This document shows, piece by piece, positions 1,051 to 59,078 of a stretch of 64,000 nucleotides of DNA. Numbering within the stretch: the stretch's first letter is position 1; each line of letters opens with the position of its first letter. Source of the DNA: Parcubacteria group bacterium LiPW_41 (GTDB lineage Bacteria > Patescibacteriota > Minisyncoccia > UBA6257 > GWB1-50-10); the NCBI GenBank assembly GCA_007375535.1, contig VMEM01000003.1, forward strand, positions 32,811 to 96,810. Reading direction: 5' to 3'. A program made the position numbers and the translations under genes. The notes beneath the pieces are model-generated. The model searched no databases and was not told where the DNA came from. It was given only the letters and a program-made list of their open reading frames with translations.

Positions 1051-3498
1051 ATGTCTAACAAATTTATCGCATGGTTTGAAGAGGTGGGGATTAAAGATGT
1101 CCCAAGCGTTGGGGGAAAGAATGCTGCGTTGGGGGAAATGTATTCAAACCTTGTTCCGAGGGGAGTACGAATTCCTGATGGATTTGCGATTACTGCAGAG
1201 GGATACAGGCATTTTGTGAGAGAAACTGGGATTGATACAAAGATTGCGGAAATTCTTAAACCATTAGATACCAAGAATATTAAGCAGCTTCAAATGTGTG
1301 GAAAAACCATTCGGGAACTTGTGGTAAAAACTGAATTTCCTACTGACCTTCGAGATGCAATTATCAGTGCGTATGCAAAGATGCAAGAAAAATATGGAAA
1401 AAATACTGACGTTGCAGTGCGATCTTCTGCAACCGCTGAAGACCTTCCTGGAGCATCATTTGCAGGACAACAAGAGACATTTTTAAATGTTCGCGGTGAA
1501 CAGGAGGTTTTGCATTATGCAAGAAAATGTATTGCATCATTGTTTACTGATCGAGCAATTTCATATCGAGTTGATAAAGGATTTGAGCATACTGATGTAG
1601 CACTTTCTGTTGGTATTCAACGAATGGTGCGCTCGGATATTTCTTCTTCTGGTGTTGCATTTACCATTGATACCGAAACTGGATTTGATAAGGTCATTGT
1701 CATTAATGGTATTTATGGGCTTGGAGAATTTATTGTTCAAGGAATGGTAATTCCTGATGAGTTTATTGTATTCAAACCAACTCTTGAAAAAGGACATCGT
1801 GCAATTATTGCAAGAGATTTAGGAAAGAAACATATCAAATTGGTTTATGGAATGCATGGAACAAAACAAAAATCAGTTTCTTGGAAAGACGAACAGAAAT
1901 TTTCTCTTACTGATGACGAGGTGCTCCAGCTTGCACAGTGGTGTTTAGAAATTGAAAAATATTTTTCGGAAACTCATGGGAAATATCAACCAATGGATAT
2001 TGAGTGGGCAAAAGATGGAAACACAGGAGAGTTGTTTATTGTTCAAGCACGACCAGAAACAGTTCACTCATCTCAAGATAAATCGGTATATAAAGAATAT
2101 CGCTTGAATAAAAAAGGAGACATTCGAGTGAAAGGAATCGCAGTTGGGTCAAAAATTGCAAGTGGTGGTGTGAGAATTTTGAAGAGTGCGAGTCAACTTT
2201 CAGATTTCCAAAAAGGCGAGGTGCTTGTGACAGAAATCACTGATCCAGATTGGGAACCGATTATGAAAATTGCTTCTGCAATTGTTACAAACAAAGGAGG
2301 GAGAACATCTCATGCTGCGATTGTGTCTCGAGAACTTGGAATTCCTTGTATTGTGGGAACAAATAACGCGACAAAAGTATTAAAAAATAAAGAGGTGGTC
2401 ACTATCGATTGTTCTTCTGGAAATGAAGGAATTGTGTATGGCGGTGAACTACCATTTGAAATTATTGAGCACAAACTTGGAGAGGTTCCGAAAACAAAAA
2501 CGAAAATTATGGTGAACATTGGTGCGCCCGATGAGGCATTCAAAAGCCACTTTCTTCCGGTGCGCGGTGTTGGACTCGGACGTCTTGAATTTATTATTGC
2601 GTCACATATAAAGATTCATCCAAATGCACTTATTAACTATCAAAGTTTAAAGAAGGGGAGTAAAACTCGAGATACACGAAAACTTTTGAAATTAATAGAG
2701 GAAATGACAGTTGGGTATGAAGATAAGGCTGAATACTATACCAGTGAGCTTGCTGAAGGAATCGCAAAGATTGGAGCAGCATTCTATCCAAATGATGTTA
2801 TTATCCGTTTTTCTGACTTCAAAACGAATGAGTATTCAAAACTTGTAGGTGGATCGCTTTATGAACCACAAGAAGAGAATCCAATGTTGGGATGGCGAGG
2901 GGCATCACGATACTATGATCCAAAATTTGTTGATGCATTTGGGCTAGAATGTGAGGCGATGCGACGAGTGCGAGAAGATATGGGATTGCAAAATGTTATT
3001 CCAATGATCCCATTTTGTAGAACGCCGGAAGAAGGAAGAAAAGTTGTTTCTATTATGGCAGAGCATGGACTTGATAGAGCAAAAGATAAGAAGCTTAAGA
3101 TTTATGTGATGTGTGAGATTCCTTCAAATATTCTTCTTGCTGATGAGTTTCTCGATGTCTTTGATGGAATGTCGATTGGCTCAAACGATCTTACACAACT
3201 TACTCTTGGACTTGATAGAGACTCTGGGATTGTGACTCATGTTGCAAATGAAAATAATGCATCAGTAAAAAAACTTATTGCACAAATCATTGAGAAGTGT
3301 AGAGCACAAAAGAAATATATCGGAATTTGTGGGCAGGCTCCATCCGATTATCCAGAGTTTGCTGAATTTCTTGTTGAGGAGGGAATTGAGAGTATGTCAT
3401 TAAGCCCAGACTCAGTTATGAAGATGATAGGGGTGGTTCAGAAGAAAGAAAAGGAGGTGGCGAGTACAAGGAGAAAAGCGCAGCTTCCACAGAAATAA
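1051..3498 (+). CDS. ppsA: Phosphoenolpyruvate synthase (pyruvate, water dikinase)
   Basis: 815 aa. N-terminal ATP-grasp region. PEP-utilising mobile His domain GGRTSHAAIVSRELGIPCIVG. C-terminal PEP/pyruvate-binding TIM barrel. Confidence 0.9.
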   Translation: MSNKFIAWFEEVGIKDVPSVGGKNAALGEMYSNLVPRGVRIPDGFAITAEGYRHFVRETGIDTKIAEILKPLDTKNIKQLQMCGKTIRELVVKTEFPTDLRDAIISAYAKMQEKYGKNTDVAVRSSATAEDLPGASFAGQQETFLNVRGEQEVLHYARKCIASLFTDRAISYRVDKGFEHTDVALSVGIQRMVRSDISSSGVAFTIDTETGFDKVIVINGIYGLGEFIVQGMVIPDEFIVFKPTLEKGHRAIIARDLGKKHIKLVYGMHGTKQKSVSWKDEQKFSLTDDEVLQLAQWCLEIEKYFSETHGKYQPMDIEWAKDGNTGELFIVQARPETVHSSQDKSVYKEYRLNKKGDIRVKGIAVGSKIASGGVRILKSASQLSDFQKGEVLVTEITDPDWEPIMKIASAIVTNKGGRTSHAAIVSRELGIPCIVGTNNATKVLKNKEVVTIDCSSGNEGIVYGGELPFEIIEHKLGEVPKTKTKIMVNIGAPDEAFKSHFLPVRGVGLGRLEFIIASHIKIHPNALINYQSLKKGSKTRDTRKLLKLIEEMTVGYEDKAEYYTSELAEGIAKIGAAFYPNDVIIRFSDFKTNEYSKLVGGSLYEPQEENPMLGWRGASRYYDPKFVDAFGLECEAMRRVREDMGLQNVIPMIPFCRTPEEGRKVVSIMAEHGLDRAKDKKLKIYVMCEIPSNILLADEFLDVFDGMSIGSNDLTQLTLGLDRDSGIVTHVANENNASVKKLIAQIIEKCRAQKKYIGICGQAPSDYPEFAEFLVEEGIESMSLSPDSVMKMIGVVQKKEKEVASTRRKAQLPQK

Positions 3499-4578: not shown

Positions 4579-5260
4579 TCTTTGTATGTTTTCTTTTCTT
4601 TTAGAGGTATCAAAATATATACTTCCAGTAATACTTGTGGCTGTTTTTTTGGTTGCGTGTGCGCGGTATATATTTAAGTTTTCTTTTTTTAATACAAAAA
4701 GCGGATTGTTTTTTTCTTTTAGGAATTTAGCAATTATTGCTGTAGTAGGAAAAATATTTAATGCGGGATTGTTAACGTACTTGCAATATTCTGTGTGGAA
4801 GCAGAGCGGTGCGGTAGGTGAGGTATTTCTCAATTCCCCAATATCGAAAGATCTTCCTTTTTCTGCTGCGAAAAACTTTGAATGGTTATTGAATAATAAA
4901 TTTGGATATTTTCTTTTTTATTCATGGGGCAGATTTTGGTTGTCTGTGTTGATATCTCTATTGGTTGCGTATGTTTTTTATCTTTTATTGCGTGCTTTAA
5001 AGCTTAAAACCGAGCGTTTTTTTGAAGAGGGAGAGACCGAGTTGGGTTTTTTGTGTGCTCTCGTTGTTGGGTGGCCTGGATTTGTATTGTTTGTTCCATT
5101 TGTTTTTTTGAGTGTTGTGTTCATTTCAATTGTAAAACTATTATTTTTTAAAGAAAAATACACCACACTCGGTGCGCCATTCATACTTGCGACCGTTATA
5201 ACATCCATTTTTGGTAATTACCTTATTTTCTTGTTTGGATTGGGAGTTCTTAAGGTGTAG
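4568..5260 (+). CDS. Polytopic membrane protein, possibly a divergent A24-type prepilin peptidase-like protein
   Basis: Multiple TM helices. The segment GETELGFLCALVVGW resembles the GGGDVKLLAALG motif of PilD-type peptidases, with Asp replaced by Glu. Sits upstream of a pilin-like gene. Weak assignment. Confidence 0.3.
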   Translation: MFHNLCMFSFLLEVSKYILPVILVAVFLVACARYIFKFSFFNTKSGLFFSFRNLAIIAVVGKIFNAGLLTYLQYSVWKQSGAVGEVFLNSPISKDLPFSAAKNFEWLLNNKFGYFLFYSWGRFWLSVLISLLVAYVFYLLLRALKLKTERFFEEGETELGFLCALVVGWPGFVLFVPFVFLSVVFISIVKLLFFKEKYTTLGAPFILATVITSIFGNYLIFLFGLGVLKV

Positions 5261-5271
5261 AATTAGGGTAT

Positions 5272-6225
5272 ATGGAAATACAGAATATTGAACATCCAAA
5301 AGCTTCTCCGAAGGATGTTTTTTTGCATCTTGGATCTATTGTTGCACTTTATGGAAGTGCGATAGCGTTTTTGATTCTTACGTTCAATCTCTTTGATATG
5401 TGGATGCCTGATGTTGCTGAGTATTATAGCGCTCGAGGATCTGCGTCGTTAATCAGGGGGGCAATTGCTGCACTTATTGTTTTTTTCCCAATGTATATTG
5501 TTTCATTAAAAATGCTTCATAAAGCATACACAGAGGATGAGACACGAAAAAAGGTTTGGATACGAAAGTGGTTGCTCTATTTCACACTATTTGTGACAAC
5601 ATTCGTTATTGCGGGAGATCTTATTTCACTCATATATAATTTTTTAAATGGAGAGTTCACGGTGAGGTTTATTCTTAAAGTGTTGGTAGTGTTTTTTGTT
5701 GCTGTGTCTATCTTCTGGTATTATCGACGTGAGTTGAAAGACTTAATTGATAAAACTACTTTTTATGTAGGTATTGGTATTTCATCAATTATTCTAATAA
5801 GTATTGTTATTGGATTTATGTTTGCGGGCTCTCCAATGAAAGAAAGAACGCGGAAGCTTGATGAGCAGCGAATTTCTCATCTTTCAACACTTCAGATGAA
5901 TATTGTTGAGTATTGGCAAAACAAGGGAAAACTTCCTGAAAATCTTTCTGTATTGAGAGATGATTTGAGAAATATCTCCATTCCTCAAGATCCTGAAACG
6001 AGAACTGAATATGGATATGGAATAAAGGGAGAAGACACATTTATATTGTGTGCGGTGTTTGGAGGAGATAAAGAAAAGGAGAATGGAGTTTCCTATGATG
6101 ATTATTATTTTGGTATTAGGGGTGATCATTCCTGGAATTATAAGGCTGGAAAATCTTGCTTTGAAAGAACAATAGATGCTGATTTCTTTAACCAAAAGAA
6201 TGGCGTCAAAGCACTTCCTCAGTAA
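5272..6225 (+). CDS. DUF5671-like four-TM N-terminal domain fused to a type IV pilin/pseudopilin-like C-terminal domain
   Basis: N-terminal 150 aa have four TM segments. Then a hydrophobic helix followed by QRISHLSTLQMNIVEYWQNKGKLPENLS, which resembles GspG/pilin globular-domain openings. Confidence 0.45.
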   Translation: MEIQNIEHPKASPKDVFLHLGSIVALYGSAIAFLILTFNLFDMWMPDVAEYYSARGSASLIRGAIAALIVFFPMYIVSLKMLHKAYTEDETRKKVWIRKWLLYFTLFVTTFVIAGDLISLIYNFLNGEFTVRFILKVLVVFFVAVSIFWYYRRELKDLIDKTTFYVGIGISSIILISIVIGFMFAGSPMKERTRKLDEQRISHLSTLQMNIVEYWQNKGKLPENLSVLRDDLRNISIPQDPETRTEYGYGIKGEDTFILCAVFGGDKEKENGVSYDDYYFGIRGDHSWNYKAGKSCFERTIDADFFNQKNGVKALPQ

Positions 6226-20727: not shown

Positions 20728-21135
20728 ATGATTCGAAAGGTAATTCATTTTTTTGATAAGTTAGAAGATCATGTTCGGGGGTCTTTAAGTCATTTTCCTA
20801 TTCTTTATGCGTTTGTGGGTGGAGTTGGAGTTGTATTGTTTTGGAAGGGAGTTTGGGAGACCGCAGAACTTTTCCCATCACTTTTTGGTCCAGGTTCAAT
20901 ACTTTTGAGTGTTATCATCTTGCTTATGACAGGAGTTTTTGTTTCCTCATTTATTGGAAATGAGATTTTAATTTCGGGTTTAAAGTCACAAAAGAAAATT
21001 GCTGAAAAAACAGAAGAGGAAGTTAAAGTTGAAGAGAGTGATATAACAAAAATTTACAAAAGAACAGAGAAAATTGAGAAAGACATCGAAGAATTAAAAG
21101 AATTGATACATAAGCATTATGAAAGAAAAAATTAA
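20728..21135 (+). CDS. Membrane protein with a C-terminal coiled-coil (hypothetical)
   Basis: Two TM helices, then a charged helical tail EKTEEEVKVEESDITKIYKRTEKIEKDIEELKEL. Confidence 0.4.
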   Translation: MIRKVIHFFDKLEDHVRGSLSHFPILYAFVGGVGVVLFWKGVWETAELFPSLFGPGSILLSVIILLMTGVFVSSFIGNEILISGLKSQKKIAEKTEEEVKVEESDITKIYKRTEKIEKDIEELKELIHKHYERKN

Positions 21136-21700
21136 TACAAAAAAACGTATTACGTTGTTTATTATTGCATTACTCATTGTTGGTGTTGGGGTTGTTGCTG
21201 TTTCTCGATATGAAACACGACGAATGATAGAAAAAATTACAAAAGAAGAAATTTCGAAAAATCGTGCGACAGTAGGTGATGATCTTGTTGGGGGAGCTGG
21301 GAATACAATGCAGGTTTCCGTATTTTTTCAAAATCCAATTTTGGCGAATGATCCTGATTTAATTGACTGCGGAAAGGTTTTTTCTGTAGTACGAACCGTA
21401 GAAAAAGTTCCTGGTGTCGCACGACAAGCACTTCAAGAATTATTACTTGGACCAACTGAGACAGAACGTGGTGCCGGGTATCAAACTGCAATTTCGAAAG
21501 AAATTGGATTACATATTGATTCAGTGAATCTTAATGATGGAGTTCTTACTATTGAATTTAATCGCTCGCCTTTTTTGGGTGGTTCGTGTGCGCTTGCAGG
21601 AGTTGTTTCTCAAATTCGATCTACTGCAAAACAATTTTTATCGGTGAAGGAAGTAAAAATGTTGGTAAATGGAACTGAGGAGTGGGCTATGAATCCATAG
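21119..21700 (+). CDS. GerMN domain protein (sporulation/germination-associated lipoprotein-like)
   Basis: N-terminal TM. Motifs ALQELLLGPTETERGAGYQTAIS and VLTIEFN typical of the GerMN fold. Confidence 0.6.
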   Translation: MKEKINTKKRITLFIIALLIVGVGVVAVSRYETRRMIEKITKEEISKNRATVGDDLVGGAGNTMQVSVFFQNPILANDPDLIDCGKVFSVVRTVEKVPGVARQALQELLLGPTETERGAGYQTAISKEIGLHIDSVNLNDGVLTIEFNRSPFLGGSCALAGVVSQIRSTAKQFLSVKEVKMLVNGTEEWAMNP

Positions 21701-21708
21701 TTTAACCT

Positions 21709-21877
21709 TAGCTTTGAATTACGAAATAGTTTTTGACTCTTTTTTGCCAATTTTTGTTCCGTGCAGTTTTTCGCTCCTCGCTGTATACTGCCTGTATACA
21801 GTTTCGTCGTGAGAAAACTGCACTCACTTAAAATTATCTAAAAAATAATTTGAAAACTATTTCGTAATTCAAAGCTA
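21709..21877. repeat. 169-bp rod-like inverted-repeat element filling the GerMN-nfo intergenic region
   Basis: Outer perfect 25-bp IR: tagctttgaattacgaaatagtttt at 21709-21733 and aaaactatttcgtaattcaaagcta at 21853-21877. Inner 10-bp IR: gtgcagtttt and aaaactgcac. Central hairpin ctgtatac-tgcc-tgtatacag. Ends 3 nt before the nfo ATG. Confidence 0.7.
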
Positions 21878-21880
21878 TCT

Positions 21881-22729
21881 ATGAAAAAGATTATCATTGG
21901 GGCTCATGTTTCCACGGCTGGTGGATTATATACTGCATTTGATCGCGCTCAATTAATTGGTGCGGAGGCAGTACAGATTTTTGGCTCTTCACCACGTGCG
22001 TGGCGCGCAAAGATGCCTACTAAAGAAGAGTGTGAAAAATTTAAAAAAGAGAGGGAAAAATATTCAATTTCACACGTTTTCTTACATGCTGCATATTTGG
22101 TAAATCTTGCAAGTGGAAATAGTGATATTTTTTTGAATTCAAAACAGAGTTTAATTGACCATCTTTCAATCGCTGAGATGATTGGAGCAGATGGACTCAT
22201 TTTTCATATTGGCTCATCAAAGGGAATCACACGAAGCGAGGCACTTTTACAAGAGATTGAAGCGATGAGAGAGATTATTAGTAGGGTTCCTGGGAAGGCA
22301 AAACTTATTATGGAAAATACCGCAGGAGGAGGAGACAAGGTTGGAGATTCAATAAAAGAAATGGGTGAATTATATAAAAAAACGGGGTCAGATCGACTTG
22401 GAATTTGTTTTGATACTGCACATGCATTTGAAGCAGGGTGGGTTGAGTCGTATACAAAAGATTCGGTAAAAAAGTTATTCGATGAGTTTGATAAAGAAAT
22501 TGGAATTGAAAATCTTTGTGCAATACACGCGAATGATTCAATGACCGATTCGGGTTCGTATCATGACCGTCATGCGAATATCGGTGAGGGGAAGGTTGGA
22601 GAAACTGGATTCCGTGCATTATTTTCCGATAAACGATTGCATTCAATTCCATGGATTTTGGAAGTCCCAGGTGTTGGTGATGGGCCTGATAGAAAAAACA
22701 TTGATGAATTAAATAAAATTTTCAAATAA
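21881..22729 (+). CDS. nfo: Endonuclease IV (AP endonuclease family 2)
   Basis: 282 aa. GAHVSTAGG opening and conserved His/Glu/Asp metal-ligand pattern (HAAYLVNL, IFHIGS, CFDTAHAFEAG). Confidence 0.9.
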   Translation: MKKIIIGAHVSTAGGLYTAFDRAQLIGAEAVQIFGSSPRAWRAKMPTKEECEKFKKEREKYSISHVFLHAAYLVNLASGNSDIFLNSKQSLIDHLSIAEMIGADGLIFHIGSSKGITRSEALLQEIEAMREIISRVPGKAKLIMENTAGGGDKVGDSIKEMGELYKKTGSDRLGICFDTAHAFEAGWVESYTKDSVKKLFDEFDKEIGIENLCAIHANDSMTDSGSYHDRHANIGEGKVGETGFRALFSDKRLHSIPWILEVPGVGDGPDRKNIDELNKIFK

Positions 22730-22736
22730 AAAATCT

Positions 22737-23072
22737 ATGAAGGTAGTAAATAAAACAAAAAACAAAGTTTTGCATGAAAACATAAAGGATGCAAAAACAT
22801 TTGAAGAAAAAACACGAGGACTACTGGATTCAATAAATGGAGATGCGATGATGTTTGATACCCGATGGGGGATACATACGTTTGGGATGAAGTTTCCTAT
22901 TGATTGTGCAATTTGTGATGACTCAAATAAGTTACAAGTACTAAAAACAAATATTCCAAAAAGAAGATTTTTCTTTTGGAACCCAAAGTATAAAAAGGTA
23001 TATGAATTTCCTGTCGGTACACTGGTGAGGACGGGTACAGAGGTTGGAGATGAGATAGTGGTTGAATATTAA
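22737..23072 (+). CDS. DUF192 (COG1430) domain protein
   Basis: TRGLLD...MMFDTRWGIHTFGMKFPIDCAI pattern typical of DUF192. Confidence 0.6.
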   Translation: MKVVNKTKNKVLHENIKDAKTFEEKTRGLLDSINGDAMMFDTRWGIHTFGMKFPIDCAICDDSNKLQVLKTNIPKRRFFFWNPKYKKVYEFPVGTLVRTGTEVGDEIVVEY

Positions 23073-23093
23073 AAACGTTTCGGAATTCAAGGT

Positions 23094-23615
23094 GTGATAC
23101 AATTACAATTAATGAACAATAAAAAAACAACATTAATTATTGTTGCACTTGTCATTGTGGGGGTTGGTATAGTCCTTTGGACTCAAACACCACGAGAGAG
23201 CGTAACACAAGAGTCACAAATACCTGAATCAAATCAACAAATACAAACATCTATGCCAGAACAAACAAATATAACAATGCAGACATTACCAAGTGGACTT
23301 CAGATTGGAGATGAGGTGGTTGGAACGGGTGCGGAAGCGGTTGCAGGAAAAATGGTGGCGGTACATTACACAGGAACGCTATTAAATGGAACGAAGTTTG
23401 ATAGTTCGCTTGATCGGGGTGAGCCATTTGAGTTTTCTTTAGGTGCTGGATATGTAATTAAAGGATGGGATGAAGGGGTTCAGGGAATGAAGGTGGGAGG
23501 AAAGAGAAAGCTTATTATTCCTTCTGATCTTGGATACGGATCTCGTGGAGCGGGGAGTGCTATTCCACCAAATGCAACATTAGTGTTTGATGTTGAACTT
23601 CTAGGAGTGAAGTAA
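23094..23615 (+). CDS. FKBP-type peptidyl-prolyl cis-trans isomerase with an N-terminal membrane anchor
   Basis: C-terminal FKBP domain [62 protein letters not shown]. Confidence 0.85.
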
Positions 23616-23617
23616 AA

Positions 23618-23642
23618 AAATCCCCACATCTGTGGGGATTAA
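23618..23642 (+). terminator. Terminator hairpin after the FKBP gene
   Basis: aaaaaaatccccacatctgtggggatt. Near-identical to the hairpin at 18415. Confidence 0.6.
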
Positions 23643-24040
23643 ACATATAAAAACAAACTTTGGTTTTGGTTTAGCTTATGCTCTCTTTTTCGCTCGTTAG
23701 AACTTAGTTTTGAGATCGCATAGATTCGGGTTGTTTTTGTGCGCACAACAACAACCTTACTTGGGAATTACACTTTTCGTAGAAGGGTAAAACAACGAGA
23801 AGATACCTTTTTACTTAGTAATCCCACAACCCCACTATTCAGTGGTTTTTCTAACTATGGTCGGTTCGTTAGTCCGCATAGACGCTCTTTCCTTTCGAGG
23901 GAAATCGATTGTACTCTTTCTTCCATTTCCAAAGCTTATTTCAAGAAACTGTTTTTATTCTAATTTTTGTTTGGTATTTGTCAACTCATGTATTCCTTGA
24001 TAGGATGACGATAGAAAGTTAATAACAACTGGAGAAAATT

Positions 24041-24553
24041 ATGAAAGAGTCAGAAATGAAATTTGAGGTAAAGGATTTTAGTCGCGTTAAAGAGCGTCTT
24101 GAAGCAATTGGCGCAAGACTTATTTGGAAGGGAATGGAAGAAACACAATATTACGATTTCCGTAATGGATCTTTAAAAGATCGTGGTATTTCGTTGCGCA
24201 TACGAGATCGAAAAAAAATAATTTTTATAACCTGTAAGCGTGATTTAAAAAATGGTGCAAATACAAAAAATCGCGATGAGTTTGAAATCACTATTACCGA
24301 CAAAAAACAAGTGGAGGGTATTCTTAATTGTCTTGATTTGGTTCCAAAGTTTTTTTACAAAAAACGAAGAGAACATTGGGAAATTAACAAAAACACTCAT
24401 GTTGAATTGGATGAACTCGAAACTGGGCAGAAGTTTGTTGAGATTGAGGGTTCGGAACGAAACATTATCAAATTTTCAAAAGTGCTTGATGTATTTGACT
24501 GCCCAAAGTCATTCAAGTCATATCCAGAGATTTTAAAAGAAAAAAGGAAATAA
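24041..24553 (+). CDS. CYTH domain protein (class IV adenylate cyclase / CyaB-thiamine triphosphatase fold)
   Basis: MKFEVK...ISLRIRD...TCKRDL..NTKNRDEFEITI...ELDELETGQKFVEIEG pattern of the CYTH triphosphate tunnel. Confidence 0.7.
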   Translation: MKESEMKFEVKDFSRVKERLEAIGARLIWKGMEETQYYDFRNGSLKDRGISLRIRDRKKIIFITCKRDLKNGANTKNRDEFEITITDKKQVEGILNCLDLVPKFFYKKRREHWEINKNTHVELDELETGQKFVEIEGSERNIIKFSKVLDVFDCPKSFKSYPEILKEKRK

Positions 24554-25847: not shown

Positions 25848-25956
25848 ATCCCGTTAGAAAACGGAACATTCATAAATAGTCTACTAATATGTATGTATGC
25901 AAAAACAAATAACAAAAATGTCGAATAACCAAAATTGTCAGGTCTTCTAACGGGAT
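25848..25956. repeat. IR-bounded intergenic element, copy A (ATCCCGTTAGAA ... TTCTAACGGGAT). Its last two bases are the AT of the queA start codon.
   Basis: Perfect 12-bp terminal inverted repeats, 109 bp overall. Begins 3 nt after the tgt stop. No SD-like sequence upstream of the queA ATG. Confidence 0.7.
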
Positions 25957-46665: not shown

Positions 46666-46790
46666 ATCCCGTTAGAAACCGCGATCGCTTTGAGGGATAG
46701 GAAAATAATAAAACTATGAACCTTAGTCGAAACAATAAATTTATTCAACATGTCGCATCATTTTCGATTGCGATCTGTTTCTAACGGGAT
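46666..46790. repeat. IR-bounded intergenic element, copy B (ATCCCGTTAGAAAC ... GTTTCTAACGGGAT). Its last two bases are the AT of the proS start codon.
   Basis: Perfect 14-bp terminal inverted repeats, 125 bp overall. Same terminal sequence as copies A and C. Confidence 0.7.
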
Positions 46791-58843: not shown

Positions 58844-58889
58844 AGTTTAGTTGTTTGTGGTGATGTTATACTAAATATAGAGAAACGTG

Positions 58890-59078
58890 TCCCGTTAGAG
58901 ACGGTTTGTGAATGCATAACAAGTATTCTCACTATTATCTTTACCTGACACATAAGGAATAACAACAACGGAAATGGTTATTTATAACACTTACAATTAT
59001 ATCAATACACTGGTCGCACATACTACAGAAAATGGCTGTGACTCTACTCACATAACCATTTCCTGTCTCTAACGGGAT
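58890..59078. repeat. IR-bounded intergenic element, copy C (TCCCGTTAGAGAC ... GTCTCTAACGGGA[T]). Ends at the start codon of the pilin gene.
   Basis: 13-bp terminal inverted repeats, about 189 bp overall. Carries a compensatory change relative to copies A and B (GAAAC/GTTTC becomes GAGAC/GTCTC). Internal 10-bp hairpin ggaaatggtt / aaccatttcc. Confidence 0.7.

Follow-up and report, generated by a model that had tools for sequence, protein, structure and literature searches.

Insertion sequences (ISs) of the IS982 family are about 1 kb long, carry one open reading frame (ORF) and produce short, AT-rich target duplications; IS1187, ISAba4 and ISAba825 are members known from the literature. Inverted-repeat elements of about 100-155 bp are known from Neisseria as Correia elements (NEMIS), which are often located just upstream of genes, are co-transcribed with them and display a TA target duplication. 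Correia hairpins are reported as RNase III targets and some Correia elements provide promoters, while to our knowledge no parent IS is known for them. In invertible promoters (invertons), inverted repeats surround a short segment directly upstream of a gene. In the Cardinium endosymbiont cOegib, an IS982-derived MITE of about 240 bp, found in many copies, has inverted repeats that match the resident IS982-family ISCca4 (PMC9769881). Literature searches returned no description of MITEs in Patescibacteria.

The locus studied here is a 169-bp nested palindrome located between a GerMN (Germane) domain gene and nfo (Table 1), within a 64-kb window, i.e., the whole 64,000-nucleotide stretch of Parcubacteria group bacterium LiPW_41 DNA that was analyzed. 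The nfo protein was 100% identical to the deoxyribonuclease IV of this bacterium. Like the cOegib MITE, the element is short, lacks a transposase gene and displays IS982-type inverted repeats. It differs by its unrelated sequence and host phylum, its smaller size, its nested-palindrome interior and the lack of a target duplication; moreover, the parent IS is resident in Cardinium, while none was seen in the 64 kb of the window. Should the element act on nfo, its nearest functional parallel would be the Correia elements, of unrelated sequence, and with invertons it shares inverted repeats around a short segment directly upstream of a gene. Taken together, the element was most probably (probability of about 0.85) a non-autonomous derivative (MITE) of an IS982-family IS circulating in Parcubacteria/Patescibacteria.

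Table 1. Features of the GerMN-nfo locus and location of the second inverted-repeat family (window positions unless another locus is named)
Feature	Position	Strand	Remarks
GerMN (Germane) domain protein, upstream gene	21119..21700	+	Pfam PF10646, E = 1.1e-11
Left flank TTTAACCT	21701..21708	+	resembles the entire 8-nt GerMN-nfo spacer TTTTACCT of L014
Nested-palindrome element, 169 bp	21709-21877		8 nt past the GerMN stop, 3 nt ahead of the nfo ATG
Left terminal inverted repeat TAGCTTTGAATTACGAAATAGTTTT	21709..21733	+	perfect 25-nt complement of 21853-21877
Left-arm family consensus core CTTTGAATTACGAAATAGT	21712-21730		within the left terminal inverted repeat
Element interior, 119 bp	21734..21852	.	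non-coding imperfect palindrome
Inner repeat GTGCAGTTTT / AAAACTGCAC	21761-21770 / 21814-21823		
Central hairpin CTGTATAC / GTATACAG	21781-21788 / 21794-21801		loop of 5 nt
Right terminal inverted repeat	21853..21877	+	core 21856-21874; 3 nt ahead of the nfo ATG
TCT between element and nfo start	21878..21880	+	left flank not directly repeated here, so no target-site duplication
nfo (deoxyribonuclease IV / AP endonuclease 2)	21881..22729	+	Pfam PF01261, E = 5.6e-39
Tentative solo-arm remnant GTTTCGGAATTCAAGG	23077..23092	+	DUF192-FKBP spacer, just upstream of the extended -10 TGATACAAT
ATCCCGTTAGA copies in the window	25848-25956, 46666-46790, 58889-59078		
ATCCCGTTAGA-family loci elsewhere	L014 341-617 and 2417-2522; L045 594-703; L016 6676-6690		

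The anatomy that had been described from the letters of the window was recovered in full: the perfect 25-bp outer repeat, the inner 10-bp repeat and the central hairpin were all present in the sequence. So was the placement against both neighboring genes, the GerMN ORF ending at 21700 and the nfo ATG being located at 21881, with a GerMN-nfo spacer of 180 nt. All 25 positions of the outer repeat paired, longer pairing extended to 37 nt at 86% complementarity, the central hairpin stem reached 9 bp once a G-U pair was counted, and the interior was 74% like its own reverse complement. Folded as RNA, the region 21701-21883 formed one rod on the plus strand (-67.1 kcal/mol, z = -11.6) and reached -64.7 kcal/mol (z = -10.3) on the minus strand; none of 200 shuffles matched this fold, and the hairpin structure of 21709-21877 is far above chance. 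The 119-nt interior by itself folded at -31.3 kcal/mol (z about -4.6 to -4.8). The only listed ORF at the element (46 aa, minus strand, 21610-21750) overlapped the end of GerMN.

No known RNA or signal class was recovered at the element. At gathering thresholds the entire window was devoid of Rfam matches, and relaxing the E value to 1 in 21600-24100 yielded none on the element; a tRNA/tmRNA scan of the window found no gene, and a terminator scan of 21000-23200 found no terminator-like site, with no T run after the stem on either strand. Promoter-like matches were as frequent as the background predicts, and nfo could use none of them. Two candidate identities were set aside: a LexA/SOS box at CTGTATAC...GTATACAG, the spacing of which does not suit CTGT-N8-ACAG, and a 6S-like RNA, as the terminal stem is perfect, with no central bubble and no Rfam match. 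Comparison of the interior with the IS, the canonical family interior, the rest of the window and the fetched loci revealed no similarity. A Logan contig (L001) carried the identical locus in the same orientation, possibly from the same sample and hence not an independent proof.

The arms of the element were found elsewhere as the ends of complete transposons. A 1024-bp element with the same termini (L051, 1846-2869) encoded a 282-aa DDE transposase, which scored 134.2 bits against the NCBIfam model NF033520 (IS982; cut-off 130), with IS5 as the next best model (52 bits), and which matched Pfam DDE_Tnp_1_3 (E = 3.6e-30). Two further elements, of 1013 bp (L059) and 1017 bp (L060), had the same termini, transposases 70-72% identical and 6-bp target duplications (TAATAT and TTATTA, respectively). 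The three ISs, each with a single ORF of 267-284 aa, open with C[T/C]TTGAATTACGAAA and close with the complement; the terminal inverted repeats of the window element (CTTTGAATTACGAAAT...) were identical to theirs. By length, ORF content and target duplications this type fits the IS982 family. IS982-family ends start with AC and those found here with CTTTG, a mismatch that may count against the assignment. Unlike these ISs, the window element lacks the ~280-aa DDE transposase and the internal IS sequence and is not self-mobile. The L051 transposase had more than 2,200 homologues, located mostly on ~1-kb contigs. A tblastn search with the IS982 transposase recovered nothing in the 64-kb window. 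L060, which carries an IS982 copy with the same ends, belongs to an assembly labelled Deltaproteobacteria (GCA_016208255.1), and a close transposase homologue, P0136, is labelled Negativicutes; these labels outside Patescibacteria may indicate either a broad host range or mis-binned contigs.

The arms were also dispersed without a transposase gene. The sequence-only reading had pointed to a search for further copies of the 25-bp repeat: in the 64-kb window the arm 25-mer occurred at two sites, both being the arms of the element itself (0 expected), while the arm core was dispersed in other Parcubacteria. In a scan of a genome collection, an arm 20-mer matched Parcubacteria GW2011_GWA2_40_143 (L012). 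The matching element is located there between a tRNA-Thr gene and a 139-aa ORF, and its arms, with the same sequence, form a perfect inverted repeat of 22 bp around 97 nt of unrelated interior. Matches of the 20-mer in Campylobacterales (L011) and in a virus (L013, lacking a partner arm) looked like chance. In a metagenome scan the shared arm 19-mer was found at 41 loci; several of these, mostly in apparent coding sequence, were likely chance matches (the groups L018/L021/L038/L042/L052/L058 and L032/L033/L041/L048, plus L046 and L057). Across all fetched loci, 22 inverted arm pairs were obtained with mismatches allowed. The terminal repeat consensus was CTTTGAATTACGAAATAGT, to which each window arm was identical at 19 of 19 positions, and the pairing of the window arms stayed perfect for 3 nt more on either side of it, at the outer end (TAG/CTA) as well as at the inner one.

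The sources of the family were Parcubacteria and groundwater metagenomes. Its canonical element of 141-143 bp, with a conserved interior, was found in both orientations and between many different flanks. Several loci held more than one copy: three within 4 kb in L031, two plus a solo arm in L037, and several arm pairs on one contig in L056. Variants sharing only the arms ranged from 39 bp (arms alone, L034) through 127-132 bp (L024, L045, L055, L044) to 194 bp (L019, L025) and 233 bp (L031, with a nested insertion). A flanking direct repeat of at least 6 bp was present in 11 of 21 copies, while randomly re-paired flanks gave a mean of 1.1 and a maximum of 6 in 2000 trials. The target-site duplications of the family, found in about half of the copies, were AT-rich and 6-8 bp long (e.g., TTATGGAC, TAGGATAT and TATATGA). 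Interiors folded to different degrees: z-scores of variants reached -9.2 (L024), -6.0 (L019) and -5.3 (L045), while canonical interiors were not clearly structured (L012, z = -1.2; L026 and L056, z about -3). Some variants, and not the arm family as a whole, are thus rod-shaped.

Termini shared with IS982-type ISs, dispersed arm pairs and target duplications together point to a transposon family with miniature derivatives, whose two arms would be the transposase-binding terminal inverted repeats of an IS982-family IS. The window element combined a length of 169 bp (prokaryotic MITEs measure less than about 500 bp), no transposase gene, terminal inverted repeats, termini shared with an IS, and presence or absence at orthologous sites. 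Some observations run counter to the MITE reading: the window held only one copy and no IS982 transposase, and the 119-bp interior matched no other family member. In addition, the target duplication seen in the family was not found at the window copy, where the flanks GTTTAACCTTAG and CTATCTATGAAA displayed no direct repeat of 4 bp or more with offsets tried (context ...AACCTTAG on the left and CTATCT... on the right). We infer that the window copy arrived by transposition, as we do the age of its insertion and its neutrality; it would be mobile only if the cognate IS982 transposase were made elsewhere in the cell. An alternative origin, with the right arm as ancestral spacer and the left arm as its local inverted duplication, was dropped because the same arms occur at unrelated loci and on ISs. 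The rod had been read as an element of unrelated sequence placed immediately 5' of a start codon. With arms that also form the terminal inverted repeats in an IS982-family IS and in a multi-copy MITE family, it is a transposon derivative and not a device built for that position. A puzzling hairpin can now be annotated as a transposon relic, a known kind of element and not a new regulatory device, and this MITE/IS982 family, widespread in groundwater Parcubacteria, has apparently not been described yet.

The same intergenic site was compared among relatives. Seven of them encoded nfo proteins 82-88% identical to that of the window, and one outgroup about 60%. Gene order was shared (135-aa ORF, GerMN, nfo, DUF192, FKBP), and GerMN-nfo spacers were 4-51 nt long (loci L002-L010 and L014-L017). 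Those of 4 nt in L016 (acat) and 8 nt in L014 (ttttacct) looked empty, and arm remnants were found in those of 11 nt (L007), 21 nt (L002), 29 nt (L004) and 51 nt (L008 and L015). The full element is confined to the lineage of the window, none of the seven sampled relatives having it whole; the presence/absence polymorphism that had been proposed as a check was therefore observed.

The remnants took several forms. The L002 spacer contained CTTTGAATTAC-AAAG, in which the initial 11 nt of the left arm run straight into the terminal bases of the right one. L004, L007, L008 and L015 displayed diverged right-arm remnants, ...(TTTCG)TAATTCAAAG, followed by 4 nt and the ATG. The L007 spacer looks like the product of a microhomology deletion, CGTAAT being present in the flank of the stop codon and in the right arm. 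L008 held two arm pieces with CAACCTCTAG between them, resembling the left flank of the window, as well as AACCT(C)TAG, similar to 21701..21708; this layout may reflect repeated events at the site. Judged by the identity of GerMN and nfo, the closest relative of the window was L002, the others branching at similar depth. At four-fold sites, L002 was 49-63% and L004 and L008 34-47% identical to the window, and the arm remnants were about 75-85% identical to the consensus, better kept than neutral decay predicts.

Shared junctions and remnants in the relatives argue for an invasion of the site that predates the split of these lineages. The spacer may first have been invaded in an ancestor of the clade, possibly more than once given arm remnants at the same place, most lineages having later lost most of the element by deletion. 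In a gene-dense genome, the GerMN-nfo spacer would be one of the few insertion sites that spare reading frames, and the element would touch both the upstream stop and the nfo start because it entered a spacer of no more than a few bases. Any effect on nfo, through a hairpin in a read-through transcript or a weak outward promoter, would be a by-product and not a purpose. The perfect arms sit uneasily with an apparently old insertion: by a rough estimate, the chance that fifty neutral arm bases stay perfect and identical to the consensus for so long is below 1e-5. Recent replacement or re-insertion by a fresh copy at a hot spot, gene conversion among copies or concerted evolution, or selection on the arm adjoining the nfo start could each possibly account for it.

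Placement directly ahead of a start codon, proposed as an organizing principle of such elements, was partly borne out. Inverted-repeat elements did recur at this position, about 9 of about 16 loci having one family end at a distance of 3-15 nt to a start codon, but the principle was not specific to starts, stop codons being abutted as often (family end at 0-13 nt in about 10 of about 16 loci). Family copies take up entire spacers that measured just a few bases before insertion. Since an insertion almost anywhere else in such a gene-dense genome would break a gene, surviving copies abut gene ends, and the apparent principle is largely the survival of transposons in extremely short spacers. Small transposons in genomes as compact as these would persist almost only in spacers of a few bases, tight against stop and start codons. 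A long hairpin found at a gene start there should accordingly be examined as a transposon relic before a regulatory role is considered.

A second MITE-like family in the window, the ATCCCGTTAGA/TCTAACGGGAT elements, had ends CCCGTTAGA and a 5-6-bp target duplication (Table 1). The termini of the 169-bp element are unrelated to it, as had been noted at the outset. In L045, its copy was 110 bp long with target duplication (G)TCAAC. The L014 copy was inserted at the FKBP start, where ATGAA was doubled, and the window copy between tgt and queA had ATGAAT doubled, while L002 kept the intact overlap ATGA. By duplicating an ATGAA(T) target, ATCCCGTTAGA insertion thus regenerates the downstream start codon, and the tgt-queA and FKBP duplications show that the ATG after TCTAACGGG is the doubled target and not part of the element. 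Also in L014, ATCCCGTTAGA ends enclosed a 94-aa GIY-YIG ORF, the TGA of which overlapped the GerMN ATG, and in L016 a solo end of this family was located directly ahead of the queA ATG.

The lack of a Shine-Dalgarno sequence at nfo was confirmed, but not as a trait linked to the element. No GGAGG-like sequence was found ahead of nfo in the window, and none was recognizable in any relative either, including those without the full element, which makes this trait independent of the rod. Many window start codons were preceded at 6-8 nt by a -10-like box (TAnnAT, e.g., TAGAAT, TACAAT or TAGGAT) (e.g., at 5272, 17543, 19153, 20728, 23112, 26990, 31332 and 39390), which suggests frequent leaderless mRNAs. 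Other window genes had a clear GGAG-type Shine-Dalgarno sequence.

Recruitment of the element, or at least of its nfo-proximal arm, for nfo expression appears unlikely. In a putative form, the rod in a read-through transcript could put the GerMN stop (8 nt) and the nfo AUG (3 nt) at the base of a helix and preserve re-initiation independent of a Shine-Dalgarno sequence; alternatively, the rod could be an RNase III-type processing site, leaving an nfo mRNA almost devoid of leader. Consistent with recruitment, the arm end followed by 4 nt and the ATG (ATTCAAAG-[T/C]A[A/C]T-ATG) was kept in L002, L004, L007, L008 and L015 despite four-fold sites near saturation (34-63% identity among these genomes), nfo has no recognizable Shine-Dalgarno sequence in any relative, and the boxes 6-8 nt ahead of many window ATGs make leaderless or very short-leader translation plausibly common. 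The window arms, perfect over 25 bp and 3 nt beyond the consensus at each end, count on the same side, and on the opposite side in that they are unchanged from the transposon consensus, where a constraint on RNA pairing only would predict compensatory changes. The full rod, furthermore, occurred in one lineage only, the closest relative L002 maintaining the same operon with a 21-nt spacer, canonical family members had no simple rod, and the window variant is single-copy, which precludes a covariation test. A related putative scenario, in which the nfo-proximal arm of an old MITE was domesticated clade-wide in the start region of nfo and the LiPW_41 rod was kept by selection for re-initiation or RNase processing, is an outside chance. 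If true, it would explain both the perfect, consensus-identical arms and remnants decayed far less than synonymous sites, and relics joining translation-start regions would bear on the expression of Patescibacteria genes that are leaderless or lack a Shine-Dalgarno sequence.

Two further readings fared worse than the MITE reading. Complete or fusion outward promoters have been reported for IS982-family elements (PMC9330008), and canonical copies of the present family carried TGATACTAT, an extended -10-like motif, 14 nt inside one end. In L026, L031 (three copies) and L019/L047 this end faced a start codon at a distance of 3-15 nt. Donation of such a promoter to nfo, by the terminal repeat itself or by its inner border, is nonetheless very improbable for the window copy, where the counterpart of TGATACTAT amounts to AACTAT and lacks a properly spaced TG, and where the sole scan match in the element (TTCAAA, 18 nt, TATCAT) would start transcription inside nfo; the orientation bias of canonical copies (5/6) was not significant. 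A recombinase flipping the 119-bp interior at the 25-bp repeats, and thereby switching nfo on and off, is hardly credible. The geometry would suit it, given that inverted repeats of 20-30 bp bracket some 120 bp immediately ahead of a gene and that the same repeats are found at many loci, but the repeats are the ends of an IS with a DDE transposase and with target-site duplications, the interior is so close to its own reverse complement that a flip changes little, and, in contrast to invertons, no internal promoter was found and no invertase or other recombinase gene was seen beside the element. Both assemblies displayed the same orientation.

Under the preferred MITE reading, other traces of the arms may persist nearby. 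The sequence GTTTCGGAATTCAAGG in the DUF192-FKBP spacer differed from the 16-nt arm core at 3 positions and was found at the same place in L002, L007 and L008; a search of the window at this level gave four matches including the two arms of the element, for 1.4 expected, which alone is not above chance. Judging from its position and similarity, it may be an old solo arm. At the FKBP start, the extended -10 TGATACAAT was followed by 7-8 nt and the ATG, and the arm motif was discarded as a -35 element of an FKBP promoter because the spacing does not suit.

Further along the window, the FKBP-CYTH spacer was 425 nt long against 85-144 nt in relatives, with only its last ~50 nt conserved. It held about 330 nt of lineage-specific non-coding DNA (23640-23990), which contained a 28-nt palindrome at 23729-23756 and had no Rfam match. 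In L002, an extra acetyltransferase gene, lacking in the window, was located between nfo and DUF192 (4843-5349). In L012, the first ~25 nt of tRNA-Thr (TTGCCACCTTAGCTCAGCGGTAGAG) were doubled (5039-5063 and 5110-5134), the partial duplicate being located about 70 nt upstream of the real gene, directly after the MITE copy. In L007, bAvd and reverse transcriptase (RVT_1) genes were found side by side (1266-3013) between uvrC and the 135-aa ORF, a pairing typical of a diversity-generating retroelement.
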